A DNA stretch of 64,000 nucleotides from an uncultured Actinomycetes bacterium. GTDB taxonomy: Bacteria > Actinomycetota > Thermoleophilia > Gaiellales > Gaiellaceae. Made by a program: the position numbers and the translations under genes. Of this stretch, positions 20,687-43,997 are shown piece after piece. The stretch's first letter is position 1, and every line of letters starts with the position of its first letter. The notes under the pieces are model-generated. The model was not told the origin of the DNA. It did no database searches and was given only the letters and a program-made list of their open reading frames with translations. The stretch spans positions 155,866 through 219,865 of the forward strand of contig CAVYQG010000002.1 in the NCBI GenBank assembly GCA_963770595.1, read 5' to 3'.

Positions 20687-20718
20687 AGCATCCGAGCGGG
20701 CGCTCAAGAAACGCTCAA
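20687..20718 (-). promoter_or_regulatory. Type I heptad-repeat promoter (TTGAGCG-N4-TTGAGCG-N8-GATGCT)
   Basis: Read on the minus strand. Heptads at 20712-20718 and 20701-20707 (11-bp phase), an 8-nt gap, then hexamer at 20687-20692. Upstream of gene 20156..20632. Confidence 0.55.
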
Positions 20719-20720
20719 GT

Positions 20721-20749
20721 GGACAGGCCGCCTCCCCGGCGGCCTGTCC
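20721..20749 (-). terminator. Terminator hairpin after gene 20765..21613
   Basis: Perfect 12-bp stem GGACAGGCCGCC/GGCGGCCTGTCC with 5-nt loop, 16 nt past the stop codon. Confidence 0.65.
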
Positions 20750-20764
20750 ACGCCTGGCCGCGAC

Positions 20765-21613
20765 TCAGCGGACGCGGTAGGAGAACGCCCTCGTCACCGG
20801 CGGCGCGTCGTCCGTCGAGACCGTGAGCGTCCCGCGCAGCGTCTTCCCCTTCGCGGTCTTCGGGAGTCGCATGGCGCAGCGCGCCGCACCACCCGAGACC
20901 GTGCCCGCGGAGCGGAGCGACGCCGTTCCGACGCGTGCCTTGCAGGACACCTTCCCCGTGAGAAAGGCCTGTGCGTCGCTTCGCGTGACCGCTGCGGAGA
21001 CCGCGAACGGCTTGCCTGCGACCGGGCGGGCCGGGTTCGCCCTCGGCGAGCCCACCGTGAGGGTCAGCGGGAAGAGCGAGTACTCGTACAGGGGCGCCGC
21101 ATCCGGCGCGAAGTCGGCGTCGTTCGGCGTCGCATCGTTCTCGTCGTCCCGCTCGGCCTCGACGAGGAACGTGAACTTCTCCACGTCGGAGAGGTCGCTG
21201 CGGTTGATCTGCGCGGTCAGGACTCCACCGGCGTAGCTCGAGGTGAGCGTAGACGTGAAGTCGATGATGATGAAGTTGCCGCTCACGGAGAATAGGAACC
21301 CCGTGCCGAGCTCCCCGCTGTGGCCGAAGAAGTGGTCCGCGCCGAGCCCGCGAATCGGGAACCCGGTGGCGGGATCTCGGTCGGAGTCGACGTAGACGTA
21401 GATCGACGCGGTGGGATCCAGCACTGCCTGGTTCGTGGTCACGGCGAACGTGAGCGTGCCGCCTGCGTCGTGCGACACCCGAACCGCGGTCGTGTCGGGT
21501 GCTGTCCCGGAGTCGCCCGCGGGATCGGCGTACGACCGATCGGCGTAGGCGCCGGGGACGGTGAGGAGCGCGAGCGCTCCGGCAAGGATCGAGGCGATCG
21601 TGAGCTTGTTCAT
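20765..21613 (-). CDS. Secreted hypothetical protein
   Basis: GGAGG 6 nt upstream of the ATG. Sec signal MNKLTIASILAGALALLTVPGAYA. Balanced composition. Confidence 0.7.
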   Translation of the reverse strand: MNKLTIASILAGALALLTVPGAYADRSYADPAGDSGTAPDTTAVRVSHDAGGTLTFAVTTNQAVLDPTASIYVYVDSDRDPATGFPIRGLGADHFFGHSGELGTGFLFSVSGNFIIIDFTSTLTSSYAGGVLTAQINRSDLSDVEKFTFLVEAERDDENDATPNDADFAPDAAPLYEYSLFPLTLTVGSPRANPARPVAGKPFAVSAAVTRSDAQAFLTGKVSCKARVGTASLRSAGTVSGGAARCAMRLPKTAKGKTLRGTLTVSTDDAPPVTRAFSYRVR

Positions 21614-21633
21614 CGGGGCCTCCTTTCGCGACG

Positions 21634-21665
21634 ATCGTCGGCGCGCGCGCTCAAGGGACGCTCAA
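21634..21665 (-). promoter_or_regulatory. Type I heptad-repeat promoter (TTGAGCG-N4-TTGAGCG-N8-GACGAT)
   Basis: Heptads at 21659-21665 and 21648-21654; hexamer at 21634-21639. Upstream of gene 20765..21613. Confidence 0.55.
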
Positions 21666-21681
21666 GGGGGTGGGGTCGGCG

Positions 21682-22077
21682 TCACTCCTCGACGAACTCG
21701 ACGGTCGTGCGCCCGGAGACGACGAGCCGCCCGCGGTCGTACCAGCGGCCCTCGAAGCGGTGCCAGCCGGCCGCGAGGCCGCCGGGAAAGTCCGCGAAGC
21801 TGTGCTTGCTCACGGGCCGCCCGCTCTCGACGCGGAGATCGGTGACGAGCACGATGCGCTCGCCGTCCACCTCGAGCTCGAACCGCGTGTCGTCGTCGAG
21901 TGCGGACACGTCGTCGTCCGCGTCGCCCGGCTCGCGGGCGAACCCGTAGCCGATCCAGAACGGTGCGCCGGCGGGGTAGACGGCGGGCGTGACGGAGCCG
22001 GGGAAGATCCCGATCCGGTCTCCGGGACGGCCTGCGAGCTCCGATCCGGGTGGCGTGACGAGGACGAAGGCTGCCAT
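21682..22077 (-). CDS. Hypothetical cytoplasmic protein downstream of the S8 protease gene
   Basis: 131-aa ORF of normal composition with no signal peptide, 86 nt after the protease stop and without a heptad promoter of its own. Confidence 0.55.
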   Translation of the reverse strand: MAAFVLVTPPGSELAGRPGDRIGIFPGSVTPAVYPAGAPFWIGYGFAREPGDADDDVSALDDDTRFELEVDGERIVLVTDLRVESGRPVSKHSFADFPGGLAAGWHRFEGRWYDRGRLVVSGRTTVEFVEE

Positions 22078-22163
22078 GTGTCGGGTCCTTTCGGTCGGTG
22101 TGAGTGATCCGGAAGCGGGTGCGGGCGACGGCCCGGGAGCCGCCGCCCGCAGTCGAGCGTGTG

Positions 22164-24141
22164 TCAGCGGAGCGAGATCGACGCGCAGCTCTGCGCGCTG
22201 GTGTTCCCCGCGCGATCGAACGCACGGACGCAGTGCTGGTACCGCCCGCCGGCCTTCACCGGCGCGCGCCAGCCGAGCGTCACCCTGGTGGCGCCCGAGC
22301 CCTTGATGAACCCGCGCCGGAGCGTTGCGACCACGCGCCCGTTTCGCTTCACCTGTGCCTCGACGCGGAACTCGCCGGACTCGTCCGCGATCCGCGAGGC
22401 GAGCGAGACCATGCGTCCGTGCCGTCCCTTGCCAGCGAGAGCGATCGCCCGAGGCGCCACGAGGTCCGGGGCCTTCGGCATGCGGAGCTCGCCTGCGCCG
22501 TACACGCTGTCCGCCGCGGGTGCGCCCAGGTCACGGGCGCTCCGCATGAGGAACGCCTGGAGCTCGGCCGGCCCGAGCGACGGGTAGGCCTGCTCGACGA
22601 GCGCCGCGGCTCCGGCGACCTCCGGGGACGACGCCGACGTGCCCGCGAACCCGCTCGGGCAGCCGATGAACGGCCCGTACGTCGCGCTGGAGACGCTGTC
22701 GTGCCCCACGAGCTCGGGCTTCATGCGCCCGTCGATCGTCGGCCCCTGCGAGCTGTACGGCTCGAGCTGCCCGCTCTGCCAGCAGAGCGCGCCGACCGCG
22801 AGCGCCGCGCCGGACGTCGCCGGGTCGACGACGCTTCCCGCCGCGACCGCATACTGGAGCGGCGGGCTGTAGCTGAACAGGTCGAGCCGCGGATTCGACT
22901 TCACGTCGTAGCCGACGATCGCCCAGTAGACGACGAGGTCGCGTCCGCTGGACTGCCCGACGCACAGGGCCTCGAACGGAGGCTGGCTGCCCGTCTGGTA
23001 CTCCTCGGAGATCGCGACGAGCTCGTTCGACCCCGACTCGACGAGCGCGAGGTCGAAGTCGGAGACCGCACCGGGCCACTCGTCCCACTTGAGGAACCCG
23101 CAGATCTCGGAGTCGTCCGGCCAGATGAACGAGTTGCCCTCGTCGCCGTTCGGCGCCCAGTCGTGAATGCGGTCACCACCGCCGGAGAACGTCCCCGACC
23201 AGTGGGTCTCGCCTTCGTTCCCGGCAGCGTTCACCCACAGGATCCCGTTCGCGCGGGCGTCCGCGACGAGCGAGCCGATGTAGCCGGTCCCGTCGCCGCG
23301 CGACGGCCCGAACCAGCCCACCGAGTGGTTCACGATCGCGACGCCCTGGCTCTTGGCGTACGCGACGGCTGCGGCGAGGTCGACCTCCGTGCTCATGCAG
23401 ACGAGGTAGAGCTGCGCCTCCGGAGCCATCTCGTGGACGATCTCCGCGACGCCGGTGCCGTGGTCGGTCGCACTCGCGTGCTTCCCGCCGCAGAAGTCGA
23501 CGTTGACGACGTTCGCGGGCAGGTCGCCCTCGGCCTGCCGCTGGGCGAGCCCGGCGAAGCCGCCGTCGATGATCGCGACCTTGACGCCCTTGCCCCTCAG
23601 GCCGGCCGCGTGCCAGGCCTGCGCGAGCGTCGTCGCCGCGGACTCGCCCGACACCGCCTGCTCCACGTGCCGGTAGGGCGCGCGGACGAGGTCCACCGCT
23701 AGCCGAGCGCGAGAGCGAGACGAGCCCGCCCTGCGGGATCACGGCCTGCAGGAGCCCCGTCGACGAGCGCTCTACGCGACCCCCGGCCGCGCGAACTGCC
23801 CGGCGGGCGGCCTCGGGGTTGCGGGTCTCGAGGACGACGCGCACGTTCCCGCCACCCGCGGCGACTCCCGCCGTGCTCGGCCGGAACCTGCGCGGGCCCC
23901 GCTCGAGCGCGAGCGCGGCGAGGCGTGCGTCGAGCTTTCCCGCAAAGCGATTGCCGTTGGATTCGAGCGTCAGGCTGTCCTGCATGCGAACGGGCTGCCC
24001 GCGAGCAAGATCTCCGGTCAGGAGCGGTCGTGCCTGGGCCGGGCGGCCCGAGGCCGAGGGGGACGCGGCGACCACGAGGGCCGCGAGGACGGCGACCGCG
24101 AGAGCCGCGGGCGCCGGGACGAGTGAGCGAGTGCCGAACAT
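22164..24141 (-). CDS. Secreted subtilisin-like serine protease (S8) with N-terminal propeptide; one frame break near 23699
   Basis: AAGGAGG SD. Signal MFGTRSLVPAPAALAVAVLAALVVAASPSASG. I9-like propeptide (VRVVLETRNPEAARRAVRAAGGRVE...). After the break come catalytic D (VKVAIIDGGF), H (DHGTGVAEIV) and S (GTSASSPEVAGAAAL). Confidence 0.85.
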
Positions 24142-24170
24142 CGGATGCCTCCTTGGTGGTTGGAGGCTTC

Positions 24171-24202
24171 ACGGTGCGTCCGGTCACTCAAGAAACGTTC
24201 AA
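24171..24202 (-). promoter_or_regulatory. Type I heptad-repeat promoter (TTGAACG-N4-TTGAGTG-N8-CACCGT)
   Basis: Heptads at 24196-24202 and 24185-24191; hexamer at 24171-24176. Upstream of the S8 protease, in the intergenic region shared with the divergent SARP-cyclase gene. Confidence 0.5.
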
Positions 24203-24263
24203 GCGCGGGGGGGTAGCGACCTCGTGTGCGCCATGACAAGCTACGCCCGTCGACCGGCGAGGA

Positions 24264-27200
24264 GTGGCAATGGGTGCAGAGCGCCGGGCAGGCGATGACG
24301 AGCTCGAGATCAGGCTTCTCGGCCCGCTGGAGGCGCTGAGAGGCGGAAGCGCGGTCGCGCTCGGCGGCCAGAAGCCGCGGGCGCTTCTCGCGGCGCTCGC
24401 GCTGGACACCGGCCGCGTCGTCTCAGTGGACGCTCTGATCGAGGATCTGTGGCCGGGCGAGGCGCCGGAGACGGCCCCGCACGCCGTGCAGGTGTACGTG
24501 TCGCAGCTCCGCAAGGCGCTCGGGCCGGTCATCGCGACGCGCCCGCCCGGCTATGCGCTCGAGCTCGAGCGCGACCGGATCGACGTCCACCGCTTCCAGC
24601 GGCTGGGCGATGACGGCCGCGCCGCACTGAACGCCGGCAGCCCCGAGCTCGCCGAGGGCGCGCTCCGCGACGCTCTCGCGCTCTGGCGCGGCCCCGCGCT
24701 CGCCGACTTCCTGTACGAGCCGTTCGCGCAGAACGAGATCGCGCGGCTCGAGGAGCTCCGCACGGTCGTGCTCGAGGAGCGGATCGACGCCGACCTCGCC
24801 CTCGGCCGCCACGCCGAGCTCGTCTCCGAGCTCGAGGGCCTCGTCGCGCGCGCAGCCGCTGCGGGAGCGGCCGCGCGCGCAGCTCATGCTCGCGCTCTAT
24901 CGCTCCGGCCGGCAGGCAGATGCGCTGGCCGCGTACCGCACGGCGCGCGAGACTCTCGATCGAGGAGCTCGGCATCGACCCCGGCCCGGAGCTCCGCGAG
25001 CTCGAGGCCGCGATCCTGCGCCAGGACGAGTCGCTGCTCCTCCCCGAGACGGCGCCGGTCAAGCCCGCGATGCAGTTCCGCCGGCTCGTCACGATCCTCT
25101 TCGTCGACGTCGTCGAGTCGATGGCACTGGCGGAGGCGCTCGACCCGGAGGCGCTCGGACGCGTGCTCCAGAGCTACTTCGAGACCGTGTCTGCGGCGCT
25201 CACCCGGCATGGCGGGACGGTGGAGAAGTACGCGGGTGACGCCGTGATGGCCGCGTTCGGTATTCCCGTCTCGCACGAGGACGACGCGCTGCGCGCCGCA
25301 CGCGCTGCCCTCGACATCCGGGTCGGGATCGCGGCGCTCAACGAGCAGCTCGTGCAGAAGCACGGAGTCGGGCTCGAGATCAGCGTCGGGATCGAGGCCG
25401 GTGAGGTCGTCGCCACGCCGACCGACGCGCGGCAACGCCTCGTGACAGGCGAGGCCGTGGGGATCGCGGCGAAGCTCGAGCAGGCGGCCGCTGCGGACGA
25501 GATCGTCGTCGGCGCTCTGGCCGGCCGGCTGATCGACCACGTCGCGACGCTCGAGCCGCTCGGAGAGATCGCGATCAAGGGCAAGCGTGATCCGGTGACC
25601 GGCGTACCGGCTGGTCGAGTTGCGCCCCGTCGGGTCGGCCTTCGACGAGCGCCAGGACGCGCGACTCGTCGGCCGCAAACGCGAGCTCGCGACGCTGCGG
25701 AGGACACTCAAGCGCTCGGTCGACGGCGCGGCCGTCAGCGTCGCGGTCGTCGTCGGTCCGCCCGGAGTCGGCAAGTCGCGCCTCGCCGCGGAGCTCACCG
25801 GCCGCGCCAAGGGCGTCACGACGCTGTGGGGCCGCTGCCTCTCCTATGGCGAGGGCATCACGTACTGGCCGCTGCGCGAGGCGCTCGAGCAGGCGGGCGC
25901 GGGGGAAGAGCGTGACGCAGTCCTCGCGGCGCTCGACGCCGAGACGCCCCCGTCCGGCGCCCGAGACCGCGTGGCTCTTCCGCCGCTTCTGCGAGGCGAC
26001 CGCCGGCGAGAAGCCGCTCGTCCTCGTCCTCGACGACGTCCACTGGGCCGAGCCGACCTTTCTCGAACTCGTCGAGCACCTTACGGACAAGGGCGTGGGG
26101 CCGATCGCCGTGGTCTGCCTCGCGCGCGAGGAGCTCCTCGAGGACCGCCCCGCGTTCCTCGAGGGGCGCGTGAACGTCGATCGAATCGTGCTCGACGCGC
26201 TCTCTGCGGAGGACACCGACTCGCTCCTCGACGGCCTCGGCGGGACGGTCCTCGAGTCGGATCAACGCGTCCGCATCGTCGAGACCGCGGAGGGGAATCC
26301 GCTCTTCGTCGAGCAGCTCCTCGCGCTCGCGCTCGAGGGCGGCCTCGCCGAACGTCCGCTTCCTGCGACGATCCAGGCCCTGCTGGCGGCGCGCCTCGAC
26401 CGGCTCGGCCCCGGCGAGCGCGCGGTGCTCGAACGCGGATCGATCGTGCTCAGGAACTTCACCCTGGACGACGTCGCGGCGCTGGTCGAGCCCGAGGCCG
26501 CGCCGACCGTAGGGGCGCACCTCGATGCCCTCGTGGCTCGCGGCTTCCTGCGTCCCCTCGCGGACGATGCCTTCCGCTTCCGCCACGTCCTCGTCCAGGA
26601 GGCGGTCTATCGCGCCGCTCCGAAGCGGCTGCGGGCGGAGCTGCACGAGCGCTTCGCAGGCCGGCTGGACGCCGACGTGCCGGATCTCGCCGACCTCGAC
26701 GAGTTCGTCGGCTACCACCTCGAACGGGCGTATCGGCTGCGGGTCGAGCTGGGCGAGTCCGATCGGCGCGTACAGTCGCTGGCCGAGGACTCGGGCCGAC
26801 GGCTCGGCGCTGCGGGCTTCCGCGCGCTCAAGCGCGGAGACATGTCCGCGACGGTGAACTTGCTCGACCGCGCTGTTGACCTGCTTCCGCGCGGCGACGA
26901 GGCGCGTCACGAGCTCCTGTGCGAGCTCGGGATCGCGCGCGATGCCTCGGGCGACCTTGAACGTGGCACCGACGACTTTCTGGCCGCGATCGACGGCGCT
27001 CGGGCCGCAGGGCAACGGCGGGTCGAGCTTCGGGCTCGCATCGAGGCGGCATATGCGCGGCTCCTCGGCGAGCCAGAAGGAGCGGCACGGGATCTGCTCG
27101 TCCTGGCGAAGGACGCTGTCCCGACGTTCGAGGCACTCGGCGATGAGCGAGGGCTGGCGCGCGCGTGGCTCCTGATCGGTTACGTGCGCGGAGGGATTCA

Positions 27201-28032
27201 CGGAGACCATGCTGCGTGGGAGCAGGCGGAGGAGCGTGCGCTCGGCTACTACCGAAGCACTGGGTTCCCACCCGCGACGTGCATGCAGCAGATCGCTGCA
27301 GCCGTCTACTGGGGTCCGACTCCCGTGGCGCACGGGATCGAGAAGTGCTCGAACTTGCTCGAGGAGCACGCCGCTGGCCAGTTCGGACGCGCGGCGGTCA
27401 TACCGTTCCTCGGCGGGCTCCACGCACAGGCTGGCGACTTCACGGAGGCGCGCCTGCTCATAGACGAGGCAGCCGGGACACTCACCGATCTCGGCGCCGC
27501 TGCGACCGTGATGGTCTTCTGTGGAACCGTGCGAGCGGACGTCGAGCTACTCGCCGGCGAGCTCGAGGCCGCGGAGGCGACGCTGCGCGAGCAATGCGAG
27601 TTCTTCGAACGGATGCGGAATCGTGGCACCTTGGCGGTCAGAGCAGCGAAGCTCGCCGAGGCGCTCTACCGGCAGGGACGGCTCGAGGATGCCGAGCAAT
27701 GGGCAGACGTCGCCCGATCCAACACGTCGAGCGACGATCAGAGCGCTCTGCTGGTCCTCGGCCCCGTGGAAGCGAGGCTTCTTGCACGACGCGGCGAGCT
27801 CTCCGAGGCTCGCGACCTGGCCGAAGAGGCTGTGCGCCTCGCGGACCGCACCGACGGGCTGAATCTGATCGCCTTCGCGCGGCTTGCGCTTGCCGAGGTG
27901 CTCGGCGCAGCCGATCTCGTCGACGAGGCTCAGCGTACGATCGCGGAGGCGATCGATCTGTTCGAACGGAAGGGCAACGTTGTCGCGGCCTCGCAGGCTC
28001 GTGCGCTCCTGGGCGTCGAGGTCACCACATGA
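24264..28032 (+). CDS. Multidomain regulator: SARP wHTH + BTAD + class III adenylate/guanylate cyclase + AAA/STAND ATPase + TPR; four frame breaks (~24850, ~24956, ~25601, ~25958)
   Basis: The ATG at 24270 has a GAGGAG SD. wHTH: IRLLGPLEALRGGSAVALGGQKPRALLAALAL...VYVSQLRKAL. BTAD: ALALWRGPALADF...LMLALYRSGRQADALAAY...LGIDPGPELRELEAAIL. Cyclase: VTILFVDVVES...GGTVEKYAGDAVMAAFG. Walker A VVVGPPGVGKSRL; Walker B LVLVLDDVHWAE. Long helical repeat C-terminus. Confidence 0.8.
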
Positions 28033-28063: not shown

Positions 28064-28083
28064 TAGCTTCAGTGTGTCGCGCA

Positions 28084-28284: not shown

Positions 28285-28370
28285 AACTCGTGTCGCGTCA
28301 ATGCAATTCCGGCGCTCGATTTCCATGCGCCGGATGCTCGAATTTCACGAGCTATTTCACATCGGAATAA

Positions 28371-28398
28371 TCATGATTTCTCGTCGGAGAAACCATGA
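28371..28398 (-). terminator. Hairpin downstream of the GtrA operon
   Basis: TCATGATTTCTC-GTCG-GAGAAACCATGA (12-bp stem, one mismatch), 32 nt after the gtrA-like stop and followed on the minus strand by TTATTCC. Confidence 0.45.
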
Positions 28399-28429
28399 TC
28401 TTGAGCGAGTGAGGAGGTAGGGAAATGTC

Positions 28430-33777: not shown

Positions 33778-33971
33778 TGAGGTCCGACGTCGAAGCGCAG
33801 CGAGCCGGGGAGCAGTCGGCCGGCGAGGGGCATCGGGGCGGAGACCGCCGCGGAGGCCTCGGGCCGCCAGCTCGGTTCGCAGCCGGCTGCGCGGAAGACG
33901 TCCACCGCGGCAAGGTAGCGCGTGATCTCGTCGATCAGCGTCTTGGTATCGGTGTCGAGCGTCAGGGTCAT
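33774..33971 (-). CDS. Small hypothetical protein (65 aa)
   Basis: Start chosen at ATG 33971 (MTLTLDTDTKTLIDEITRYLAAV...). The heptad promoter places a -10-like GACCAT 6 nt upstream, implying a leaderless transcript. Confidence 0.45.
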   Translation of the reverse strand: MTLTLDTDTKTLIDEITRYLAAVDVFRAAGCEPSWRPEASAAVSAPMPLAGRLLPGSLRFDVGPH

Positions 33972-33977: not shown

Positions 33978-34009
33978 ATGGTCTCCAGCCGCGCTCAAGG
34001 TCGGCTCAA
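33978..34009 (-). promoter_or_regulatory. Type I heptad-repeat promoter (TTGAGCC-N4-TTGAGCG-N8-GACCAT)
   Basis: Heptads at 34003-34009 and 33992-33998; hexamer at 33978-33983. The ATG lies 6 nt downstream. Confidence 0.5.
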
Positions 34010-34012
34010 CGC

Positions 34013-35038
34013 TCACGGCCGTCCGCCTTCGTTCTGGACGCTGAAGCCGAGCCGGCCGACGTCCCGGTTCCCGGCCGTGTCGCTCGCCACCACGACCAGC
34101 TCGTAGTCGCCGTTACGGAGCGCGCTCGTGTCGAAAGTGGAAAGCCTGAACAGGTACCGGCCGGTGAGGAAGCGCTCCTTGCGTCCGGAGAAGACGGGCC
34201 AGTTCTGGTGCGTGCCGCGCGCGAACGTCGTCCAGAAGCCGTCGTTCTTCGGCACGACGCGGCGAACGTCGCGCGCTATCCGCCGACCGACGACGACGCG
34301 CCCCGAGGCGTCCTCGATGCTCCACGCGACGAGTGCCGGGGTGACCGGGAAGCCGTGCCAGCGCCCGGGGACGGGCAGCGCGGGCATGTCGATCGCCTCG
34401 GCCGCGAGGACGACCCGGCCCCGCACGTGCTCCGCTCCGCCCGCGCCGCGAATCGAGACTCCGACGACCTGCGGGACGGTCGAGTCGCGGTACGGCGTCA
34501 GGCGTCCGGAAGCGAGCGGGCTCACGGCGCGATTTCGCTCGAGGTGCGTCAGGTGCACGTGCTCGCGCTTCTGCTGGACGAAGCCGAGGAGGGTCTTGCC
34601 GGCGACGGCGTGCTGTCCCACCCGCGCTGCCGGATCGATGTGCCAGTACTGGAACGAGCGTCCGTTCCCGCAGTCCACGGTAACGCGGCCGCCGCGCGCC
34701 CGGACGACCGTGCCCGAGCTGACGGCGTAGACGGGCGACCCGTCGGGCGCCGAGATGTCGAGGCCCTGGTGGAACGAGAAGCCGCCCCGGCCCTGGAGGA
34801 TCGTTCGCTCCGAGCGCTCACCACGGAACACCGTGCGGGGATCGCCGAACGAGCCCCTGATCGGGTGCGCGCGGTCGAACGGCTTGACGGGCCAGCCGTA
34901 GGCGCCGGTGCAGCCGGTGCCCGTCGAGACCGCCAGTGCGGAGGTCGCGACGGCGAGGCCGAGGAGCGCGATCAGGACGGCGAGCGCGGTCGATGCGACG
35001 AGGGCTCTTGCGGTTGAGGTGGTGCGTGCGGTAGCCAT
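34013..35038 (-). CDS. Secreted M23 family metallopeptidase (paralog 1)
   Basis: Signal MATARTTSTARALVASTALAVLIALLGLAVATSALA. FHQGLDISAP (HxxxD) and EHVHLTH (HxH) motifs. Conserved C-terminal extension shared with paralog 2. Confidence 0.8.
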   Translation of the reverse strand: MATARTTSTARALVASTALAVLIALLGLAVATSALAVSTGTGCTGAYGWPVKPFDRAHPIRGSFGDPRTVFRGERSERTILQGRGGFSFHQGLDISAPDGSPVYAVSSGTVVRARGGRVTVDCGNGRSFQYWHIDPAARVGQHAVAGKTLLGFVQQKREHVHLTHLERNRAVSPLASGRLTPYRDSTVPQVVGVSIRGAGGAEHVRGRVVLAAEAIDMPALPVPGRWHGFPVTPALVAWSIEDASGRVVVGRRIARDVRRVVPKNDGFWTTFARGTHQNWPVFSGRKERFLTGRYLFRLSTFDTSALRNGDYELVVVASDTAGNRDVGRLGFSVQNEGGRP

Positions 35039-35045
35039 GGCCCGC

Positions 35046-35099
35046 ACGCTCGGAGGGGCCCCAAACCGGCCGGCAACCGCCCCCTAACCGCTCGCTAAC
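35046..35099 (-). promoter_or_regulatory. Type II phased-heptad promoter (GTTAGCG / GTTAGGG / GTTGCCG / GTTTGGG -N8- GAGCGT)
   Basis: Heptads at 35093-99, 35082-88, 35071-77 and 35060-66 (11-bp phase). Hexamer at 35046-51, 7 nt before ATG 35038. Confidence 0.55.
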
Positions 35100-35115: not shown

Positions 35116-36102
35116 TCAGCGCCCCAGCACGAGCGGAACCCGCCGGGTCGCGGTGTTTCCCCGCGTGTCGCGCACGGAGACCTCGACGAGGTACGCGCCC
35201 CCGCGGAAGCGGGCGACATCGCGGCTGAGGACGACCCTGTACCGGCCCGGTGCCCGGACGTGGTTCTGACTCGTCCCGGGCGCCCACACGTCGTCGAAGG
35301 CCGAGGCGGGCGGGATCGTGAGCCTGACGTCGAGGGCGGTGCTCCAGTCGGAAACCGGCCGGCGCTTCGCGTCGAGCAGGCGCCAGCGGACGAGCGCGGG
35401 CATGACCGGGAGGTCGTGCCACGGCCTCGGAACCGCGAGCGGCGTCTCGTCGTACGCCTCGGCGACCAGGTGCCTGCCGTCGGTGGCGACCGATCCGACG
35501 GTCGGCCTCGTTCGGTCGACGTACGGGCCCAGTGCGCCCGCTCGGAGCGGGTTCAGGTAGCGGCCGTGGCGCATCTCCGAGAAGTGCACGTGCGCGTACG
35601 GGGCCTCGATGTGACCGATCAGGGTCCTGTACGCGACCACCCGCTGGCCGGTCCTCACGGTCGGGACGACGTGCCAGTAGCTGAACTCGGCCCCGTCCGG
35701 CCCGGAGATCAGGACGGTCGTGTCGTGGAGCGGGTGGATCGACGCGGTGCCGGTCAGCGTTGCGTACACGGGCGTCGCGTTCGGCGCGGAGATGTCGACG
35801 CCGAAGTGGAACTGCCTCGACTGCTGGTGGTTCGAGATGCGCGGGTCGCCGAAGAAGCCCCGGACGGGGTGCTGTGCGCGGAACGGCTTGACGGGCCAGG
35901 CGTATGCGTACGGAGCGGCGCTCGCACTCCGCGCCAGGCGTGGAGCTGCGGGGCGGTCGTGCGGTGCGGCGAGCAGGCCCGCTCCCACCGCAGTCTGCGT
36001 GGGCACGAGTTGCGCGGCCATCAGGACGGCGCCCGCGGTGGCGACCGCGGCGCCGGTGAGAACGATCGGCCGAGACGTGAGACGTACGCGTGGAGTCGTC
36101 AT
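35116..36102 (-). CDS. Secreted M23 family metallopeptidase (paralog 2)
   Basis: Start at ATG 36102 (MTTPRVRLTSRPIVLTGAAVATAGAVLMAA). FHFGVDISAP and AHVHFSE motifs. Collinear with paralog 1 throughout. Confidence 0.8.
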   Translation of the reverse strand: MTTPRVRLTSRPIVLTGAAVATAGAVLMAAQLVPTQTAVGAGLLAAPHDRPAAPRLARSASAAPYAYAWPVKPFRAQHPVRGFFGDPRISNHQQSRQFHFGVDISAPNATPVYATLTGTASIHPLHDTTVLISGPDGAEFSYWHVVPTVRTGQRVVAYRTLIGHIEAPYAHVHFSEMRHGRYLNPLRAGALGPYVDRTRPTVGSVATDGRHLVAEAYDETPLAVPRPWHDLPVMPALVRWRLLDAKRRPVSDWSTALDVRLTIPPASAFDDVWAPGTSQNHVRAPGRYRVVLSRDVARFRGGAYLVEVSVRDTRGNTATRRVPLVLGR

Positions 36103-36109
36103 GCCCGGC

Positions 36110-36163
36110 ACGGTCGGAGGGGGCTCCAACCGGCCGGCAATGGCCGACTAACCGGGGGCTAAC
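36110..36163 (-). promoter_or_regulatory. Type II phased-heptad promoter (GTTAGCC / GTTAGTC / ATTGCCG / GTTGGAG -N8- GACCGT)
   Basis: Heptads at 36157-63, 36146-52, 36135-41 and 36124-30. Hexamer at 36110-15, 7 nt before ATG 36102. Confidence 0.55.
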
Positions 36164-36192: not shown

Positions 36193-36224
36193 TTGAGCAC
36201 GCGTTGAGGGCGGGAGGCTTCGAT
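36193..36224 (+). promoter_or_regulatory. Type I heptad-repeat promoter on the plus strand (TTGAGCA-N4-TTGAGGG-N8-TTCGAT) upstream of the SARP-SIR2 gene
   Basis: Heptads at 36193-99 and 36204-10, an 8-nt gap, hexamer at 36219-24. Same geometry as the five minus-strand type I sites. Confidence 0.5.
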
Positions 36225-36291: not shown

Positions 36292-37920
36292 GTGTCAGTT
36301 GTGACGTACGAGTTCAGGATCCTCGGTCCCCTCGAGGTCTCGGGTGAGACCGGTCCCGTCGCGCTCGGAGGGCAGCGGCAACGCGCGCTCCTCGCGGCGC
36401 TCCTGATCGAGGCCGGCCGCGTCGTGCCGACTGAGCGCCTCGTCGACCTCCTGTGGGGCGAGGCCGCGCCGAGGACCGCGACGACGTCGCTCCAGAACTC
36501 GATCTCACGGTTGCGGCGCGAGCTCGGCGCAGACCTCCTCGAGACGCGTGCGCCCGGCTACGTACTCCGCGTCGACCCGCAGCAGGTGGACGCGCATCGC
36601 TTCGAACGGCTTCTGCGCGACGCGCGCGGCTCGGAGGCCGCCGCGCGGCGCGAGACGCTGCGCGAGGCTCTCGCGCTCTGGCGAGGCCCCGCCCTCGCCG
36701 AGTTCGCCTTCGAGCCGTTCGCGCAGGCGGAGATCCGCCGGCTCGAGGAGCTCCGGCTCGTCGCGCTCGAGGAGCGGATCGATGCCGACCTCGAGCTGGG
36801 CCGCCACGAGCGACGTCGTGGGCGAGCTCGAGGCACTCGTCGGCGAGCATCCGCTGCGGGAGACCTTCAGACGGCAGCAGATGCTCGCGCTCTACCGATC
36901 GGGCCGCCAGGCGGAGGCGCTCGACGCGTACCAGGACGCTCGCTCCCGCTTCGTCGAGGAGCTCGGCATCGAGCCCGGGCCGGAGCTCAAGCGTCTCCAG
37001 GCGGAGATCCTCGGCAGGAGGCGGGAATCGCCGCGCCCGGCGCGACCTCGCCCGACGACCGACGACGAAGCCGAGATCGTGGCGGCGCTCCTCGCCGGCC
37101 GGGTCGTGCCCGTGCTCGGGCTCGACGGCGTCGGCGACCTCGCCGCGCACCTCGCGTCGGCGTTCTCCGTCCCCGACGACCGGCCGGTCGACCTCGCGCG
37201 CGTCTCGCAGTACGTCGCGACGATGCAGGGCTCGGGGCCGCTGTACGACGAGCTGCACGCGCTCTTCGAGGCCGCCACCGAGCCGAGCGCGCTGCACCGC
37301 TTCCTCGCCCAGCTGCCCGCGCTCCTCCGCGAGCGTGGCGCGCCGCACCAGCTCATCGTGAGCACGAACTACGACCTCGCGCTCGAGCGGGCGTTCGAGG
37401 ACGCGGACGAGGAGCTCGACATCGTCACGTACGTCGCCAGCGGTCCGCATCGCGGTCGCTTCTGGCATCGGCCGCCCGGCGAGCCGCCGCGCCCGATCGA
37501 CGTTCCCAACACGTACGCGACGGAGCTCTCGCTCGAGCAGCGGACGATCCTGCTCAAGCTCCACGGTGCCGTCGACCCGCTCCCCGAGCGCGAGTGGGAG
37601 AGCTTCGTCATCACCGAGGACGACTACATCGACTACCTCGGGCAGCTCCGAGCTGGCGGCAGTCGTCCCCGTGTCGCTGGCCGCCAAGCTGCGGCGCAGC
37701 CACTTCCTCTTCCTCGGCTACGAGATGGCCGACTGGAACCTGCGCCTGATCCTCAACCGCCTCTGGGGGGAGCGGCCGATCGCGCTATCGCTCGTGGGCG
37801 GTGCAGAGCTCGCCGAGCCCGCTCGCGCAGGCGTTCTGGCGCCGATACGACGTGACGCCGCTCGACGTCGAGCCCGAGGCGTACGTCGCGCTGCTCGGAC
37901 GGAGGCTGGAGGCGGCATGA
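36292..37920 (+). CDS. SARP wHTH + BTAD + SIR2-like (SIR2_2 type) domain protein; three frame breaks (~36808, ~37645, ~37790)
   Basis: wHTH: FRILGPLEVSGETGPVALGGQRQRALLAALL. BTAD: ALALWRGPALAEF...QMLALYRSGRQAEALDAY...LGIEPGPELKRLQAEIL. SIR2-like: GRVVPVLG, HQLIVSTNYDLALERAF, ILLKLHGAV, FVITEDDYIDY, HFLFLGYEMADWNLRLIL. Ends ...LGRRLEAA with TGA 37918-37920. Confidence 0.75.
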
Positions 37921-40900
37921 GCGCCGACGCGCCGTTCGCCCGTACAAGGGCCTGAGCGCGTTCGAGGACTCGGAGGTCGACGCGCTCCTCTTCTTCGGCC
38001 GCGAGCGCGAGCGGGAGATCGTGGTCGCGAACCTGATCGCCTCGCGGCTGACGGTCCTGTACGGACCGAGCGGCGTCGGCAAGTCGTCGCTGCTCCGCGC
38101 GGCGGTCGCGCGCTCGCTGCGTGAGCTCCCCGAGCAGCCGCTCGTCGTCGTCTTCTCGCGCTGGAGCGACGATCCGGCCGCCGCGCTCGCCGAGACCGTT
38201 GCCGAGGCCGGTCGGAGGGGGGACGAACGGCACGGCTGCCGAGGCGCTCGCGCGAGCACAGGTCGACCGCGACGTCTACCTCGTGCTCGACCAGGCGGAG
38301 GAGTACTTCCTCTACCACGCCGACGACGGTGGCATCGGCTCGTTCGCGGAGGCGCTGCCGGCGCTGCTCGCGGCGCCGCGCCGCGTCAACGTCCTCGTCT
38401 CGCTGCGCGAGGACTCGCTCGCGAAGCTCGACCGCTTCACGGGCCGGATTCCCGGGCTCTTCGCCAACACCTCCGCCTCGACCGCCTCGACCGCGACTCG
38501 GCGCAGCGCGGCGATCGTGCGGCCCGCTCGAGCGCTTCGCCGAGCTGACGGGTGACGACGTCACGGTCGAGCCGGCGCTCGTCGAGCGGGTGCTCGACGA
38601 GGTCGGCGCGGGCCAGATCGAGCCTCGCGCTCGGCGGGCTCGGAGCCGTCGAGGGCGCCGAGCGACGCGGCGCGGATCGAGGCGCCGTACCTCCAGCTCG
38701 TCATGCAGCGGATCTGGGAGGAGGAGCGAGCGGCCGGCTCGGACGTGCTCGCGGCTCGAGACGCTCGAGCGGCTCGGCGGCGGCGCAGCGCATCGTCGAG
38801 GAGCACCTCGACGGGCGCTCTCGACGAGCTGTCGCCCGCGCAGCAAGGACGTCGCCGCGCGCCTGTTCAACCACCTCGTGACGCCGTCGGGAACGAAGAT
38901 CGCGCACGAGGTCTCGGACCTCGCCGACTTCGGCGGCGTTCGCCGTGGACGAGGTCAAGCCGGTGCTCGCGAGTCGCTCGCCGAGCGGCGGATCCTGCGC
39001 TCGCGTCGAGGAGGGCGGCGGGGTCCGGTACGAGATCTTCCACGACGTGCTCGCGGAGCCGTGCTCGCCTGGCGCGTCGAGCGCACGAGGCCGAGCGCGA
39101 CCTCGAGCTGCAGAAGCGCGACTCCGACCGTCGGCATCGGCGCTTGCTCGGCGTCATCGCCGTCGGGGCGGTGCTTCTCGCGACGATGGGCGCGATAACG
39201 GCGTTCGCGCTCACGCAGCGCTCCGAGGCCAGGAACCAGGCGCGCGCGTCGAAGGCGAACGAGCTCGTGGCGGTGTCCGGCGCCGAGCGCGCTCGCGACC
39301 CGGAGCTCAGCCTCGCTCTCGCGCTCGAGGCGTCCCGCCTCGATCCGAGCGAGAGCTCCGAGCAGGCGCTGCGCCAGGCGCTCAACCAGTCGCGCATGCG
39401 AGGCGTCGTGGACCTCGGTGAGCCGGTGGTGGGCGCAGCTCCGCTCGGGCGCCTCGTTCTGGGTGTCTCCGAGAGCGGGGAGCTCGTGGAGGCGAATCCG
39501 GCCACCGGCGAGATCCTGGGGCGCGTGGACACGGGCAGCCCGGCCGCCGATGTGTCGTTCTCGACCGACGGGACGCCGCTCGTCACGGGCCGAGACGGCA
39601 GCGTGCTGCTGGTCCGGGGAGGCGACGCGATCGCCGTCCCCGGGGTCACGGAGGCTCGAGCGGCGTCGATCTCGCCCGACGGCAGCCTCGCGGCGGTCGT
39701 CGAGCCTCGCGGCGTGCGGCTCGTCGACGTCGAGTCCGGCTCGGTGCTCGAGTCGTACGACCATCCAGGCGCGATCTCGGCGGCCGTGTCGTACGACAAC
39801 CGGCGGGTGGCGACGGGAGGGGCGGACGATCAGGTTCACATCTGGTCGGGTCAGAGCGGTCGCCGCGTCCACACGCTCACCGAGCACGACGGGAACGCGG
39901 TCGCGCTCGAGTTCAGCCCTGACGGCGCCCGTGTCGCGACCGCCTCGAGCGACGGCGTCGGCCGGCTCTTCCGTACCGCCGACTGGGGCCTCTCGTCCGT
40001 CGTCACCGGCCACACGCACTCGTTGCGGGACATCGCGTTCAGCTCCGACAGCGAGCACGTCGTCACCGCGGGCGAGGACGGGACGGCGCAGGTCTTTCAC
40101 GTAGACACCGGAGACCAGCTCGTCGTCCTCGCGGGCAGCGACGACTGGGTGATGTCCGCGGCCTTCGCAGGCGGGGTCGGGAGCCCGATCGTCACGGCAG
40201 GCCGGGACGGGACGATCCGCGTCTGGGATTCCGTCTTCCAGCCGGAGCTTGAGCTGCTCACCGAGCTTCCGAGCGCGGTGGTGTACGTCGAGTTCGACGA
40301 CGACGGCCGGCTTCGCGCGACGACGGACGTCGGGCGCGCACACATCCTCGACCCGGCTACCGGCGAGGTCCTGGAGGTCGTGCGGGGCGCGAAGCCGAGA
40401 CGCGACCAGGGACCGAGCGGGGAGGTCGCGACGATCCGCGGAAAGACGGTCGTCCTCCGGACGGGGTCGGGCACCCGGACGCTCGAAGGGCATCGCGACC
40501 GCGTCACGGGCGTCGACTTTTCCCCGGACGGTGCGCTGCTCGTCACGTCGAGCAGGGACAGCGACGCTCGCATCTGGAGGGTCGCCGACGGCGAGTCGAT
40601 CCAGGCTCTGCAGCACAACACGGCCGTGCACGACGCCCGGTTCAGCCCGGACGGGAAGTGGGTCGTCACGGCTGCGTTTCGCGGCAGCCTGTGGGACGTG
40701 AGTGACGGCTCCAACCTCTTGCGCCTGCAGGGCCACGACGGGACGCTCACGACCGCGACCTTCGACCCCACGGGACACACGGTGTTCACGGGCGGGGTCG
40801 ACGGCACCGTGCGGACCTACGAGTGCGGGCTATGCGGCGGCCTCGACGAGCTCGTCTCGCTGGCGGAGGCGCGCCTGGCTGCCACCCGCCGCGGCCTGAC

Positions 40901-40931
40901 GCCGGACGAGCGCGAGCGGTATCTCCGCTAG
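37917..40931 (+). CDS. nSTAND-like P-loop NTPase + TM helix + WD40 repeat protein; about 17 frame breaks between 37932 and 39080, none afterwards
   Basis: ATGA overlap with the upstream stop. RPYKGLSAFEDSEVDALLFFGREREREIV. Walker A LYGPSGVGKSSLL; Walker B VYLVLDQAEEYF. PYLQLVMQRIWEEE. TM LLGVIAVGAVLLATMGAITAFAL. WD40 blades (HDGNAVALEFSPDGARVATASSDGVGRLF, GHTHSLRDIAFSSDSEHVVTAGEDGTAQVF, GHRDRVTGVDFSPDGALLVTSSRDSDARIW, GHDGTLTTATFDPTGHTVFTGGVDGTVRTY). Confidence 0.8.
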
Positions 40932-41653
40932 CGCCGGCAGTGGGTGCGAGGCAGGAGCCCTAGCGCGCACAGCTCGGGCTGCGGCGCCCGGATCGCGAAC
41001 GCGCTCCTGAGCTCCCGCGTGAACCAGACGTGCAGCATCTCGCTCGCGCCCTGCTGGAGGCGGGCGCCGGGCGGGCAGCGTCCACCGGCGAGCGGCTTCA
41101 GGCCGCGCTTCGCACCGTGCTTGCACACGATGTGCGAATGCCAGCGCATGATCGGGCCGGCGGGGGTCGGGCCGAGCTCGCCGTCGCGCGTGCTCCACAT
41201 GGCGCCGACGAGGACGAGCGGCCGCCCGCGCGCGTTGGCGTAGATGAGCGCCTTGGGCCGCGTCGGGTCCAGGATTCCCGCGCGCCGCGGCTCCTGGTGC
41301 CGTTCCGCGTGGAAGAAGTCGACCCTGGTCGCGCCCAGGCGCCTGGGGGCCGTCCGCGTGTCGTAGCCGGCACGCCTCGCCGCCTGGACGCTCCTCCAGT
41401 TCCCGCGGTCGGCGGCGGAGACGAGCTGTTCGAGTATCGACCTCGCGCGGGCTCGCTGGCGCGAGGTCGCGAGCCGGACTTGTGGGTACTGCGGCAGGTG
41501 GTCGACCAGCCCACGCCGCGCGGTGGCAGGAAGGAGGTCGGCGCCCTGCGGTGGCTTGCAGACGAGGATGGGAGGCGCAGCGGTTCCCGCCTCGCCGGCC
41601 GACACCAGCGCGACGGCCAGGATCGCGACGATGCCGACGCGAGCGCTCGTCAT
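40928..41653 (-). CDS. Secreted hypothetical protein
   Basis: Start MTSARVGIVAILAVALVSAGEAG at 41653. Ordinary composition with several Cys/His. Last gene of the PD40/DMF-like operon. Its stop overlaps the WD40 gene stop (CTAG at 40928-40931). Confidence 0.6.
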   Translation of the reverse strand: MTSARVGIVAILAVALVSAGEAGTAAPPILVCKPPQGADLLPATARRGLVDHLPQYPQVRLATSRQRARARSILEQLVSAADRGNWRSVQAARRAGYDTRTAPRRLGATRVDFFHAERHQEPRRAGILDPTRPKALIYANARGRPLVLVGAMWSTRDGELGPTPAGPIMRWHSHIVCKHGAKRGLKPLAGGRCPPGARLQQGASEMLHVWFTRELRSAFAIRAPQPELCALGLLPRTHCRR

Positions 41654-41688
41654 GTGCGCGATCCTAGTGCCGTAGCGCACGAGTCGCA

Positions 41689-43022
41689 TCACCGTGCCAG
41701 CCGCGCCCACAGGTTCTCCAGCATCCGCCAGACGACGGGGTCCGACGTGATCGAGCGGGTGAGGTGGAACGCGCCCGCGGCGAACACGTTCGCACCTTCG
41801 CTCGTGCGGTAGAAGGTCATCTGCGCGGTCTGACCCGGGCCGAAGAGGTCCGGGATCTCTGCGACGACCTGCACGTTCGCCGGCGACTCGGGTGCGACCT
41901 CGTCGATCTCGACGCCGCCGCGCGCGAACCGCGAGCCCGCGTGCAGCCCGGTTCCCGCGAAGATCCATCTGCTCGCCGCGGTCCGCCGGACGACCCAGGC
42001 CGCACGTGGCGAGCGCTGGTGCGCGAAGTACTGGACGCCGACGAGGGCAGCTTCGGGCCGGCGGACGGCGCGCCAGCGGTTCTTCTTCACCATGGCGTCG
42101 TCCTCCCGTTCGACGCGCCAGAAGAAGTTGTTCGCCGACAGGAACATGAGGTTGCCACCGAGATCGCGGTAGCCCTCGACGAGGTCGTACTCGTGCTCCG
42201 TCACGTACTCGTGGTGGCCGGCGAACACGATCAGGTCGTAGGCGCGGGCGAGCGTGGAGGCGCTTCCGACCTGCTCGAGGTCCCACTGCGAGAGGTAGTC
42301 GACCTCCTTCCCGGTCCAGTGCGAGCCAGTTCAGGAAGCCGAGGTGGTAGCGGAACCCGTACGGCACGCCCCGGTCGAGGTGCGCCCGACCCAGTCGGAC
42401 GGTTTCGAGGAACTTGCTCGCGTACCACGAGTCCGGCTGCCCGTCGCCGTCGTCGTCCCGGAAGTTGTACGCCTGCCACGTCAGGGTCGGGAGGACGACC
42501 GCGACGCGGCGCTCGCCGACTCGCTGCGGTGCCACCACGAACGGTGCGAAGCCGATGCGCCCGTCCGGCGCCGTCAGCCGGGCGAAGTAGAGCCCACTCT
42601 CCCAGTCCCCGACTCTGAGGGTCAAGGTGCGACGCCCGCCGACCGTCCTGATCGTCCGCCTCGACGTGACGGCGACGCCCTTCATGACGCCCTCGGTCCG
42701 GGTCGCGACCCGCTCGGGCCCCGCCTGGAAGATCCGGATCGTCAGCCGGGGTGACGGATCGTCGATCACGAGCCGCGCCCGCTGACCGGGGCGATAGCTC
42801 TCGTGCTGGTAGGCGGCCTCGACCGCGGGGACGAGCCGTCCGGACACCTTCGGAGTCGCGTCCCTCGACCGGATGCTCCGAGACCGAGGTTGCCGCGACG
42901 ACGAGCACGCCTGCGGCTGCGCCGACGACAATCGCTCGAGCGGTGATCGCTCGCTGGACCACGCCCGCAACGTAAGCGAACTTGCCCAGGGCGCGCTCGA
43001 CGACGGAGGACGCGGATGACAT
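41689..43022 (-). CDS. N,N-dimethylformamidase large-subunit-like (DUF-type amidotransferase-like) protein, membrane-anchored; two frame breaks (~42855, ~42330)
   Basis: N-terminal anchor AIVVGAAAGVLVVAA, then YRPGQRARLVIDD...GLYFARL...VVLPTLTWQAYNF...HWTGKEVDYLSQWDLE...IVFAGHHEYVTEHEYD...NLMFLSANNFFW. I recognise this as the DMFase-beta-like family. Confidence 0.55.
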
Positions 43023-43038
43023 GGGCGCTGGGTGCCGT

Positions 43039-43936
43039 TCAGCTCACGGGCGGTAGCCAGGCGGCGTCGCTCTTCGGCTCTCCGGCAGGCTCGACGCGAC
43101 GAGCGTCGGTGCCGTCCGCGCGGACGAGCCGGATGCCCCGGCCGGCGTCGAACGCGATCCACTTCCCATCCGGCGACCACGCCGGGTCCCCGACGGCGCC
43201 ACGGGCGATCCGCCGCCTGTCGCGGCCATCGGGACGCGCGACGACGATGCCGGTGCTGTCACCCCATTCGTCGACGGACGTGAACGCGAGACGCCGACCG
43301 TCGGGCGACCACGCCGGGTCGCGCGACTGTCCCAGAGGCACCTGCAGGCTGTTCGCCGTCTCGGTCGCGAGCGACGACTCTCACGTAGAGCCCGAACTCG
43401 CACTCGTCGTAGTACTCCGAGAACGCGAGGGCTCTGCCGTCCGGCGACGGCGCGACATCGAGAGCGCAGTAGCCGCGGTACGTCGGCGCTGCTCGAACGA
43501 CCTGCTGCACGCCGGTCCCGTCGGCTCGGACGCGGAGGATCCCGACCGACCACTCCCGGTGGCCGCGTCCGCGCCGGTAGCGACTGAAGTAGACGTACCT
43601 GCCGTCGGGGGACCAGGCGGGGGAGAGCGCGGCCGCCGCTCGCGTCAGCCGCCTCGCCCGCGTACCGTCCCGGTGCACGATCCAGATGTGTCCACGTCGG
43701 ACGAACGCGATCTCCGTCGCGTCGTTCGAGACAGCAGGGGACGAGGCGTCCCGCACCAGCAGACGGGCGTCGGATCCGTCGCTCGAAGCGACGTAGAGGT
43801 CGGCTCCCCGCTCGAAGACGAGCTCGGCGCTCGGTAGCGCGGCGTCCTTCGTCGTGCTCGCGATACCCATGGCACCTGCGCCGACAGCCGCGATCACGAC
43901 CACGGCGAGCGGGTACCTCCACGAGCGGCGTGTCAT
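43039..43936 (-). CDS. TolB-like PD40 beta-propeller repeat protein, secreted; one frame break near 43375
   Basis: GGAGG SD. Signal/anchor [17 protein letters not shown]. Repeated AWSPDG motifs ([48 protein letters not shown]). Confidence 0.75.
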
Positions 43937-43964
43937 CGAGCCTCCTCGACCGATCGACTCGCGG

Positions 43965-43997
43965 AGCGTCGGGAAGAGCGCTCAACGGAGCGCTCAA
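43965..43997 (-). promoter_or_regulatory. Type I heptad-repeat promoter, 12-bp spacing variant (TTGAGCG-N5-TTGAGCG-N8-GACGCT)
   Basis: Heptads at 43991-97 and 43979-85; hexamer at 43965-70. Upstream of the PD40/DMF-like/secreted-protein operon and divergent from uvrB. Confidence 0.5.

Follow-up and report, generated by a model that had tools for sequence, protein, structure and literature searches.

The stretch of DNA analyzed here, which we refer to as the window, comprises 64,000 nucleotides (64 kb; 71% G+C) from an uncultured member of the Gaiellaceae, in the class Thermoleophilia. Between a gene for an MFS transporter and uvrB it contains an island of ~24 kb that encodes two proteins headed by a Streptomyces antibiotic regulatory protein (SARP) domain. 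The first regulator gene, SARP-A (24270..28032, plus strand), encodes Trans_reg_C and BTAD domains, a guanylate-cyclase-like domain, an AAA_16 ATPase and TPR repeats, and is broken in this assembly by at least three frameshifts. The second, SARP-SIR2 (also SARP-B; 36301..37955, plus strand), joins Trans_reg_C and BTAD to a SIR2_2 domain and has frameshifts at ~36806 and ~37600. Its 3' end overlaps a third gene, also frameshifted, for an nSTAND1 NTPase with WD40 repeats (37940..40931, plus strand; start approximate). As had been predicted from the nucleotide sequence, both regulators have genuine SARP heads: in each, an N-terminal OmpR-type winged helix (Trans_reg_C) is followed by BTAD, and both heads match AfsR (8hvr, 8k60) in phmmer searches with E values of 1.9e-43 and 7.7e-28, and EmbR (2fez) with E values of 8e-35 and 5e-23. 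Using the SARP heads as queries, we found no third SARP head and no other Trans_reg_C head in the window.

Upstream of genes in the island lie six tandem copies of the heptad TTGAGCG, or close variants, each followed by a hexamer. We call promoters of this class, with two copies of TTGAGCG, T1, and those of a second class, with four copies of GTTRGNN, T2. Site 1 (20687..20718, minus strand; TTGAGCG-TTTC-TTGAGCG-N8-GATGCT) stands 54 nt before the ATG of a gene for a 158-aa protein, and site 2 (21634..21665, minus strand; TTGAGCG-TCCC-TTGAGCG-N8-GACGAT) stands 20 nt before the ATG of a gene for a 282-aa protein, with the Shine-Dalgarno sequence aaggagg in between. Site 3 (24171..24202, minus strand; TTGAACG-TTTC-TTGAGTG-N8-CACCGT) lies 29 nt before the ATG of a gene for an S8 protease, within a 122-bp intergenic region that this gene shares with the divergent SARP-A gene. 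Site 4 (33978..34009, minus strand; TTGAGCC-GACC-TTGAGCG-N8-GACCAT) is 6 nt from the ATG of a gene for a 65-aa protein, a hexamer-to-ATG gap that predicts a leaderless mRNA. Site 5 (43965..43997, minus strand; TTGAGCG-CTCCG-TTGAGCG-N8-GACGCT) is found 28 nt before a gene for a PD40-repeat protein, divergent from uvrB; its N5 spacer sets the heptads at 12-nt phase. Site 6 (36193..36224, plus strand; TTGAGCA-CGCG-TTGAGGG-N8-TTCGAT), 76 nt before the GTG start of the SARP-SIR2 gene, is the weakest of the sites and has the weakest hexamer, with no A at position 2.

All of the tandems described in the original prediction, with their heptads and spacers, are present in the sequence; they are intergenic and oriented toward the downstream gene, and in six of six sites the gap to the hexamer is exactly 8 nt and the hexamer ends in T (position 6). 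There is an A at position 2 in five of the six. Start codons were said to lie 20–90 nt downstream; this holds for five of the genes, with the 65-aa gene and its 6-nt leaderless spacing falling outside that range. The heptads are spaced 11 bp apart in five of six window sites and in nearly all of the orthologous sites described below, and an obvious Shine-Dalgarno sequence occurs in four of the six leaders. A near-match inside polA, noted in the original prediction, turns out to be a single heptad (12195) and not a tandem.

The six-site pattern is real and far above chance. Searching the window for the N4 form of the pattern with up to two mismatches yields six matches, compared to 0.62 expected from shuffled sequences, and none of 100 shuffles reaches six; the six matches correspond to five of the sites and one spurious match in coding sequence (48983-49000, TCGAGCG..TTGCGCG). 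Half of the exact copies of TTGAGCG in the 64 kb (7 of 14) belong to these tandems. We also scored the window with a weight matrix trained solely on sites from other genomes. With this independent matrix, the five N4 sites score 40.9 (site 1), 36.0 (site 2), 30.0 (site 3), 29.6 (site 4) and 19.6 bits (site 6), and the next best match, at 12.0 bits, is a shifted overlap of site 4; in Markov shuffles, about 0.1 match is seen at 15 bits or more. A search for further weak sites in the window with two weight matrices gave nothing above 12 bits, and nothing before the gene for a 131-aa protein that lies downstream of the S8 protease gene. We considered whether the sites might stem from a duplicated promoter cassette and ruled this out: their flanks and spacers are unrelated, so the six are not copies of one duplicated segment.

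To ask how widely the sites are conserved, we scanned 185,579 species genomes once with the repaired head of SARP-SIR2, obtaining 72 orthologous loci (L001-L072), all of them from metagenome-assembled genomes (MAGs) of Gaiellaceae, Gaiella or Thermoleophilia. A TTGAGCG-N4-TTGAG tandem lies ~80 or ~122 nt upstream of the SARP-SIR2 gene in 38 of the 72. Tandems also precede orthologues of the 65-aa gene (~22 loci, with the leaderless spacing kept), the 131-aa gene (24 loci), the 158-aa gene (~10 loci), the 282-aa gene (where site 2 is conserved in L022 and L053), and the S8 and PD40 genes. Within the islands of these loci, from the MFS gene to uvrB, there are 98 sites, compared to 0 in 263 kb of flanking DNA, and sites avoid coding sequence: 5 of 177 fall in long open reading frames (ORFs) with high GC3, compared to 370 of 2000 random positions. 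The conservation before the same genes, the confinement to the island and the avoidance of ORFs together indicate that the motif is a conserved, island-restricted promoter element. The original prediction of a local regulon, with a motif rarer in shuffled and coding sequence, is thus borne out across dozens of Gaiellaceae species, and the comparative data support a conserved regulon confined to this island.

The hexamer is conserved along with the heptads. We collected 180 non-identical tandems using TTGAG-N6-TTGAG with up to one mismatch as the sole rule, so that the hexamer played no part in their selection. In these tandems, A is present in 71% at +27 and T in 88% at +31, which amounts to NANNNT exactly 8 nt past the second heptad; A is also enriched 7 nt beyond the hexamer, and the two heptads are equal in information content. 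This layout is that of SARP target promoters, which have direct repeats at intervals of 11 or 22 bp and 8 bp between the 3' repeat and the -10 element (PMC10936776). The AfsR-afsS initiation complex contains two adjacent protomers on a pair of 11-bp repeats; they contact T-38 and T-27, upstream of a weak -10 hexamer, CACTGT (PMC10936776). If the T1 hexamer is taken to span -12 to -7, the two heptads begin with a T at exactly -38 and -27, with TTGAGC taking the place of the TTCAGC of afsS. We infer that the hexamer is a functional -10 element. By analogy to AfsR and from the comparative genomics, we consider it likely that the six sites are SARP-type, activator-dependent promoters that form the regulon of the island.

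Another reading is that no activator is involved and that an alternative sigma factor itself recognizes the motif as a -35-like element. TTGAGC does resemble TTGACA, and the hexamers are promoter-like, but recognition by a sigma factor would leave unexplained why there are two equally conserved copies at 11-nt phase. Moreover, neither heptad is usable as a normal -35 element, since their distances to the hexamer, 9 and 20 nt, fall outside the 16–18-nt range. The same gene family also has a separate canonical promoter at normal spacing, TGGACA-N18-TANNNT. In the window, this promoter of the SARP-SIR2 gene (P2; 36266..36303, plus strand) reads TTTACA-N18-TAGTGT-N5-GTG, and 30 of 70 orthologous loci conserve it in the form TGGACA-N18-TA(A/G)(G/T)GT-N5-GTG; it would give the gene a second promoter and make its GTG start, at 36301, leaderless. 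We regard direct reading by a sigma factor as highly improbable.

It is also conceivable that the tandems are bound by an unlinked winged-helix regulator, such as an OmpR/PhoB-type response regulator that reads 11-bp repeats over the -35 region, and that the neighboring SARP genes are a coincidence. The PHO box is built from 11-nt repeat units with a GTTCACC core and is bound by a response regulator; PHO-box-like sites share the 7+4 repeat structure seen here. The core of the T1 sites, however, is TTGAGCG, we found no OmpR-type response regulator in the island, where the sole response regulator detected is of the LuxR/NarL type, and the SARP heads, used as queries, detect no Trans_reg_C head in the window besides themselves. 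The exact 8-nt offset to the -10 hexamer is a SARP signature, the sites are found only within the SARP-encoding island (98 versus 0 outside), and a T1 site is always present in the intergenic region divergent from SARP-A (36 of 36 cases). These results make an unlinked regulator very unlikely, though somewhat less so than a sigma factor acting on its own.

The T2 promoters are found at two M23 peptidase genes on the minus strand. The first (35036..35099), at the gene 34013-35038, reads GTTAGCG-N4-GTTAGGG-N4-GTTGCCG-N4-GTTTGGG-N8-GAGCGT-N7-ATG; the second (36100..36163), at the gene 35116-36102 and divergent from the SARP-SIR2 gene, reads GTTAGCC-N5-GTTAGTC-N4-CATTGCC-N4-GTTGGAG-N8-GACCGT-N7-ATG. 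The general layout is GTTAGCG GTTGGCC GTTGCCG GTTGGAG with N4 spacers, followed by N8, GA(C/G)CGT, N7 and ATG; with the hexamer N7 from the ATG, the M23 mRNAs are predicted to be leaderless. There are 54 copies of the T2 array in the 72 loci, and it is kept even in the clade without TTGAGCG tandems. The array directly adjoins, and is in phase with, the T1 tandem of SARP-SIR2. We regard T2 as a second SARP-like promoter class that would control both M23 peptidase genes and that tracks SARP-SIR2.

Which SARP binds which class? The recognition helix of SARP-A, HAVQVYVSQLRK, is invariant, that of SARP-SIR2 is TATxSLQN..RLR, and that of A', a paralogue found at the position of SARP-A in a more distant 'Gaiella sp.' clade, is ..VQN.VSRLR. 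Within 200 nt of each of the 36 heads with the HAVQVYVSQLRK helix there is a T1 tandem on the divergent strand, and no GTTNG array accompanies any of them. In contrast, none of the 15 A' heads has a T1 tandem; they have GTTAGCG-N4-GTTGGCG-N8-CAGGGT instead. SARP-SIR2 heads adjoin GTTNG arrays in both clades, with T1 present only in the clade that also has SARP-A. Some SARP-SIR2 genes of the other clade, X (L042/L043/L054/L066-L068), have GTTAGCG-N4-GTTAGTG upstream on the coding strand, and the promoter near uvrB, which is T1 in the window (43965-43997), is T2 in two Gaiella loci (L041, 15303; L059, 15321). A metagenomic orthologue of SARP-A with 65% identity (L089) has kept both the helix and the divergent T1 tandem. 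A more distant SARP-cyclase-ATPase paralogue with 52% identity and the helix AKIVQGYVSQLRR (L088) is instead preceded, at ~1120-1180, by four GGTGGAC/GGTCGAG heptads in 11-nt phase, an array that suggests a third heptad specificity. Taken together, these associations make SARP-A the candidate that we moderately favor as the T1 binder, with SARP-SIR2 a distinctly less probable one and some other protein less probable again; SARP-SIR2 is, more likely, the reader of the GTTRG class, to which it is predicted to bind. If SARP-A is the T1 binder, the site before the SARP-SIR2 gene marks a cascade and not autoregulation.

Several observations weigh against this interpretation. The assignment of T1 to SARP-A is a phyletic correlation confounded by phylogeny, with one clade carrying both SARP-A and T1. 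Two loci of clade X (L035, L062) have a T1 tandem near uvrB and no SARP-A gene within 10 kb. R92 of AfsR, which makes the contact to the first T of each repeat (PMC10936776), has an equivalent Arg in SARP-SIR2 but not in SARP-A. The SARP-SIR2 promoter hexamers TTCGAT, TGATCT and TCTCAT have no A at position 2, so the site before this gene may differ in nature from the other promoters. One site (43997) has a 12-nt phase; the equivalent sites near uvrB have N4 in other loci, so the extra base may be an assembly indel. Finally, both SARP genes are frameshifted in this assembly. We had considered using the AfsR contacts (R92, T88) as a guide to the binder and dropped this approach as ambiguous.

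The retained Arg and the two clade-X loci, which carry SARP-SIR2, would fit the alternative that the TTGAGCG tandems are SARP boxes bound by SARP-SIR2, acting on its own gene and on those for exported proteins, while the SARP-cyclase protein reads something else. So would the T1 tandem that precedes SARP-SIR2 both in the window and in 38 of the 72 orthologues. On the other hand, ~30 clade-X orthologues of SARP-SIR2 with a nearly unchanged helix have no T1 tandem anywhere in the island and keep GTTRG arrays beside the gene, and T1 lies beside 36 of 36 SARP-A-type heads. In this full form, we consider the alternative rather unlikely, and, given that the binder is a SARP, SARP-A remains our preferred reader of T1.

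With SARP-A in this role, two SARP protomers would bind the adjacent heptads, one helical turn apart, and the dimer forming on the DNA would stand in for the missing -35 contact. The bound pair would recruit RNA polymerase to the weak -10 hexamer NANNNT in an activation of the sigma-adaptation type, and transcription would start ~7 nt downstream of the hexamer. The output of the regulon would consist mostly of exported proteins: its predicted members are the 158-aa and 282-aa proteins, the S8 protease with the 131-aa protein, the operon for PD40 and DMFA2_C-like proteins, the leaderless 65-aa protein, and the SARP-SIR2 gene. The last of these would make the system a two-tier cascade, in which SARP-A drives the SARP-SIR2 gene and SARP-SIR2 in turn reads GTTRGNN x4 at the two M23 peptidase genes.

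The closest known system is AfsR and the afs box of afsS in Streptomyces coelicolor (PDB 8hvr, 8jke, 8k60; PMC10936776). As here, two 11-bp repeats over the -35 region have conserved T's at -38 and -27, the 3' repeat is 8 bp from a weak -10 hexamer (CACTGT, compared to CACCGT or GACGCT here), and the SARP head is fused to NTPase and repeat domains. The heptads differ (TTCAGC versus TTGAGC), as do the C-terminal parts, NB-ARC-TPR in AfsR versus cyclase-AAA_16-TPR, or SIR2 with a separate nSTAND1-WD40 partner, in the island. Whereas AfsR targets a small regulator of antibiotic synthesis, the predicted targets here are exported proteins and peptidases of an uncultured member of the Thermoleophilia.

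The domain order of SARP-A is that of the 'SARP-LAL' regulators PimR, SanG and PolR, with no LuxR HTH (PMC3367932, PMC5930380, PMC10972967): both the window fragments and the intact protein, a single 1264-aa ORF in L016, contain Trans_reg_C, BTAD, Guanylate_cyc, AAA_16 and TPR-like repeats, and no GerE. PimR, which has a SARP-cyclase-ATPase architecture and heptads with 4-nt spacers (PMC3367932), resembles the system described here in these spacers, in a regulator gene divergent from its target, and in a hierarchical cascade onto a second regulator gene, which is a prediction for the island. The CGGCAAG heptad that PimR shares with SanG and PolR (PMC3367932) is present at the PimR target in three copies that do not lie over the -35 region, while here there are two copies of TTGAGCG in the classical position, and PimR has one target where the island has many. 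SARP-A thus belongs to the PimR-like class by architecture and does not share its heptad: the heptads beside its gene are TTGAGCG.

The small SARPs ActII-ORF4, DnrI and RedD reportedly recognize the heptad TCGAGC(G/C), one base off TTGAGCG, with the same 11-bp phase and the same 8-bp offset to the -10 element; our literature search for the TCGAGCG consensus returned primer sequences only. Unlike the regulators of the island, these proteins are said to be ~300 aa long, to be encoded inside antibiotic clusters, and to act often through three heptads.

The SARP-SIR2 protein is intact in other assemblies, at 538–550 aa, and hundreds of intact 538-aa copies occur in soil metagenomes. We asked whether SARP-SIR2 and nSTAND1-WD40 might form a single giant protein, and ruled this out: in two independent short-read MAGs they are two overlapping genes in different frames (L009, 9953-14631; L016, 9965-14646). 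Their open frames overlap by up to ~320 nt (window junction ~37900-37960). In reality the two genes probably share only a short stretch, an arrangement that would point to translational coupling.

Among the target genes on the minus strand, the 158-aa gene (20156..20632) has a product whose N terminus is a hydrophobic anchor or signal sequence, and the 282-aa gene (20765..21613) encodes a secreted protein with a signal peptide; neither protein has a Pfam match. A perfect hairpin with a 14-bp stem and the appearance of a terminator lies between these genes (20719-20751, minus strand; GTGGACAGGCCGCC-GGGGA-GGCGGCCTGTCCAC) and runs right up to the first heptad of site 1. Transcription of the 282-aa gene upstream probably ends there, in which case the 158-aa gene would be a separate transcription unit. 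Downstream of site 3 is an operon (21682..24141) that comprises the S8 subtilase gene (22164-24141, with one frameshift) and the 131-aa gene (21682-22077). The 65-aa gene occupies 33774..33971. The operon downstream of site 5 (40928..43936) contains the PD40-repeat gene (43259-43936) and one or more fragmented DMFA2_C-like genes (40928-43180).

The members of the regulon that had been listed in the original prediction remain as predicted members, and the 131-aa gene has to be added as a core member in other genomes. Although it has no T1 site of its own in the window, where it probably shares a transcript with the S8 protease gene, it has one in the 24 other loci, always divergent from SARP-A, and is the gene most consistently linked to T1 in other genomes. 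Its protein family has at least 215 members (including P0001-P0120), all hypothetical, without a Pfam domain and without a signal peptide; an identical 131-aa protein is present on an ENA contig. The structural model of the protein is a beta-sandwich (pLDDT 70.6), for which Foldseek returned weak Ig-like matches (TM <0.5) and no informative structural match.

Pfam searches of the island ORFs identified S8 and M23 peptidases, PD40, DMFA2_C, GtrA, an FAD oxidase, a two-component system and unmatched proteins. These searches detected no polyketide synthase or nonribosomal peptide synthetase domains, with no dedicated predictor of biosynthetic gene clusters having been run, and we saw no genes in the island for polyketide or nucleoside biosynthesis. 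In the stretch that separates the end of SARP-A from the GtrA-like gene, a 22-nt direct repeat rich in A+T, ATTTCACATCGGAAAAACCATG, occurs twice, with a single TTGAGCG heptad directly after it (28354-28407).

The frameshifts in the island, which affect SARP-A, SARP-SIR2, the S8 gene and the DMFA-like gene, are accompanied by pervasive frameshifts in housekeeping genes: for example, uvrA (48706-51549) is split into three ORFs, and panC (54822-55445), tsaD (from 59379) and ABC transporter genes (8492-10012) are broken as well. Because these genes are also affected, and because short-read MAGs and JGI assemblies have intact orthologues, indel errors in the assembly, of a kind to be expected in a long-read MAG, probably account for the frameshifts, and we do not take a pseudogenized, decaying island as the default reading. 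A second Peptidase_S8 fragment (60790-61015, plus strand), with no TTGAGCG tandem upstream, shares a long ORF with a TsaD fragment; this ORF is probably a frameshift artefact that joins two genes. Elsewhere in the window, a 124-bp unit is repeated three times in tandem (3892-4256) with 98% identity, each copy having a GGGGGAACCCCATGGTTCCCCC palindrome, between a phosphofructokinase gene and a tRNA-Leu(CAA) gene (4298-4381). Rfam detects this single tRNA in the window and gives no match for the 124-bp repeat.

The promoter architecture itself is textbook SARP, and it is the cast of regulators and targets that is unusual. To our knowledge, SARP regulators are known almost exclusively as switches of antibiotic clusters in Streptomyces. 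Our literature search found no paper linking Gaiella and SARPs. Nor did it find reports of a conserved SARP regulon in uncultured Thermoleophilia, of exported proteins and peptidases as targets instead of biosynthetic genes, of a SARP-SIR2 fusion paired with a STAND-WD40 gene, of two heptad classes that co-vary with two helix classes, or of orthologous promoters that switch class.

These results place the classical geometry of the SARP box before genes for exported proteins and peptidases in dozens of uncultured Gaiellaceae species from soil, and define a regulon in a lineage where functional genetics is nearly absent. The signaling domains of the candidate regulators are unusual: one regulator has an adenylate/guanylate-cyclase-like domain, the other SIR2 together with a STAND-WD40 partner. 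The combination of SIR2, STAND and WD40 is otherwise typical of conflict and immunity systems. It is possible, though we hold this tentatively and think it more doubtful than not, that the island is the transcriptional output module of two STAND-like sensors, SARP-A acting on TTGAGCG x2 and SARP-SIR2 with nSTAND1-WD40 on GTTRGNN x4, wired as a cascade, with each heptad code matched to a distinct helix (V/Q versus N/R at AfsR positions 88/92) and with exported lytic enzymes as the output. If so, the lytic output would be the S8 and M23 peptidases, plus a polysaccharide deacetylase in some genomes, and an immunity-type sensor would have an output in gene expression instead of, or besides, NAD+ depletion. 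Should the link between SIR2 and STAND hold, sensors of conflict systems would be tied to transcriptional control. The two heptad classes, the two helix classes and the rewired orthologous promoters amount to a testable specificity code, and the exchange of T1 and T2 at orthologous promoters from one clade to another would in that case serve as a natural experiment on the DNA specificity of SARPs.

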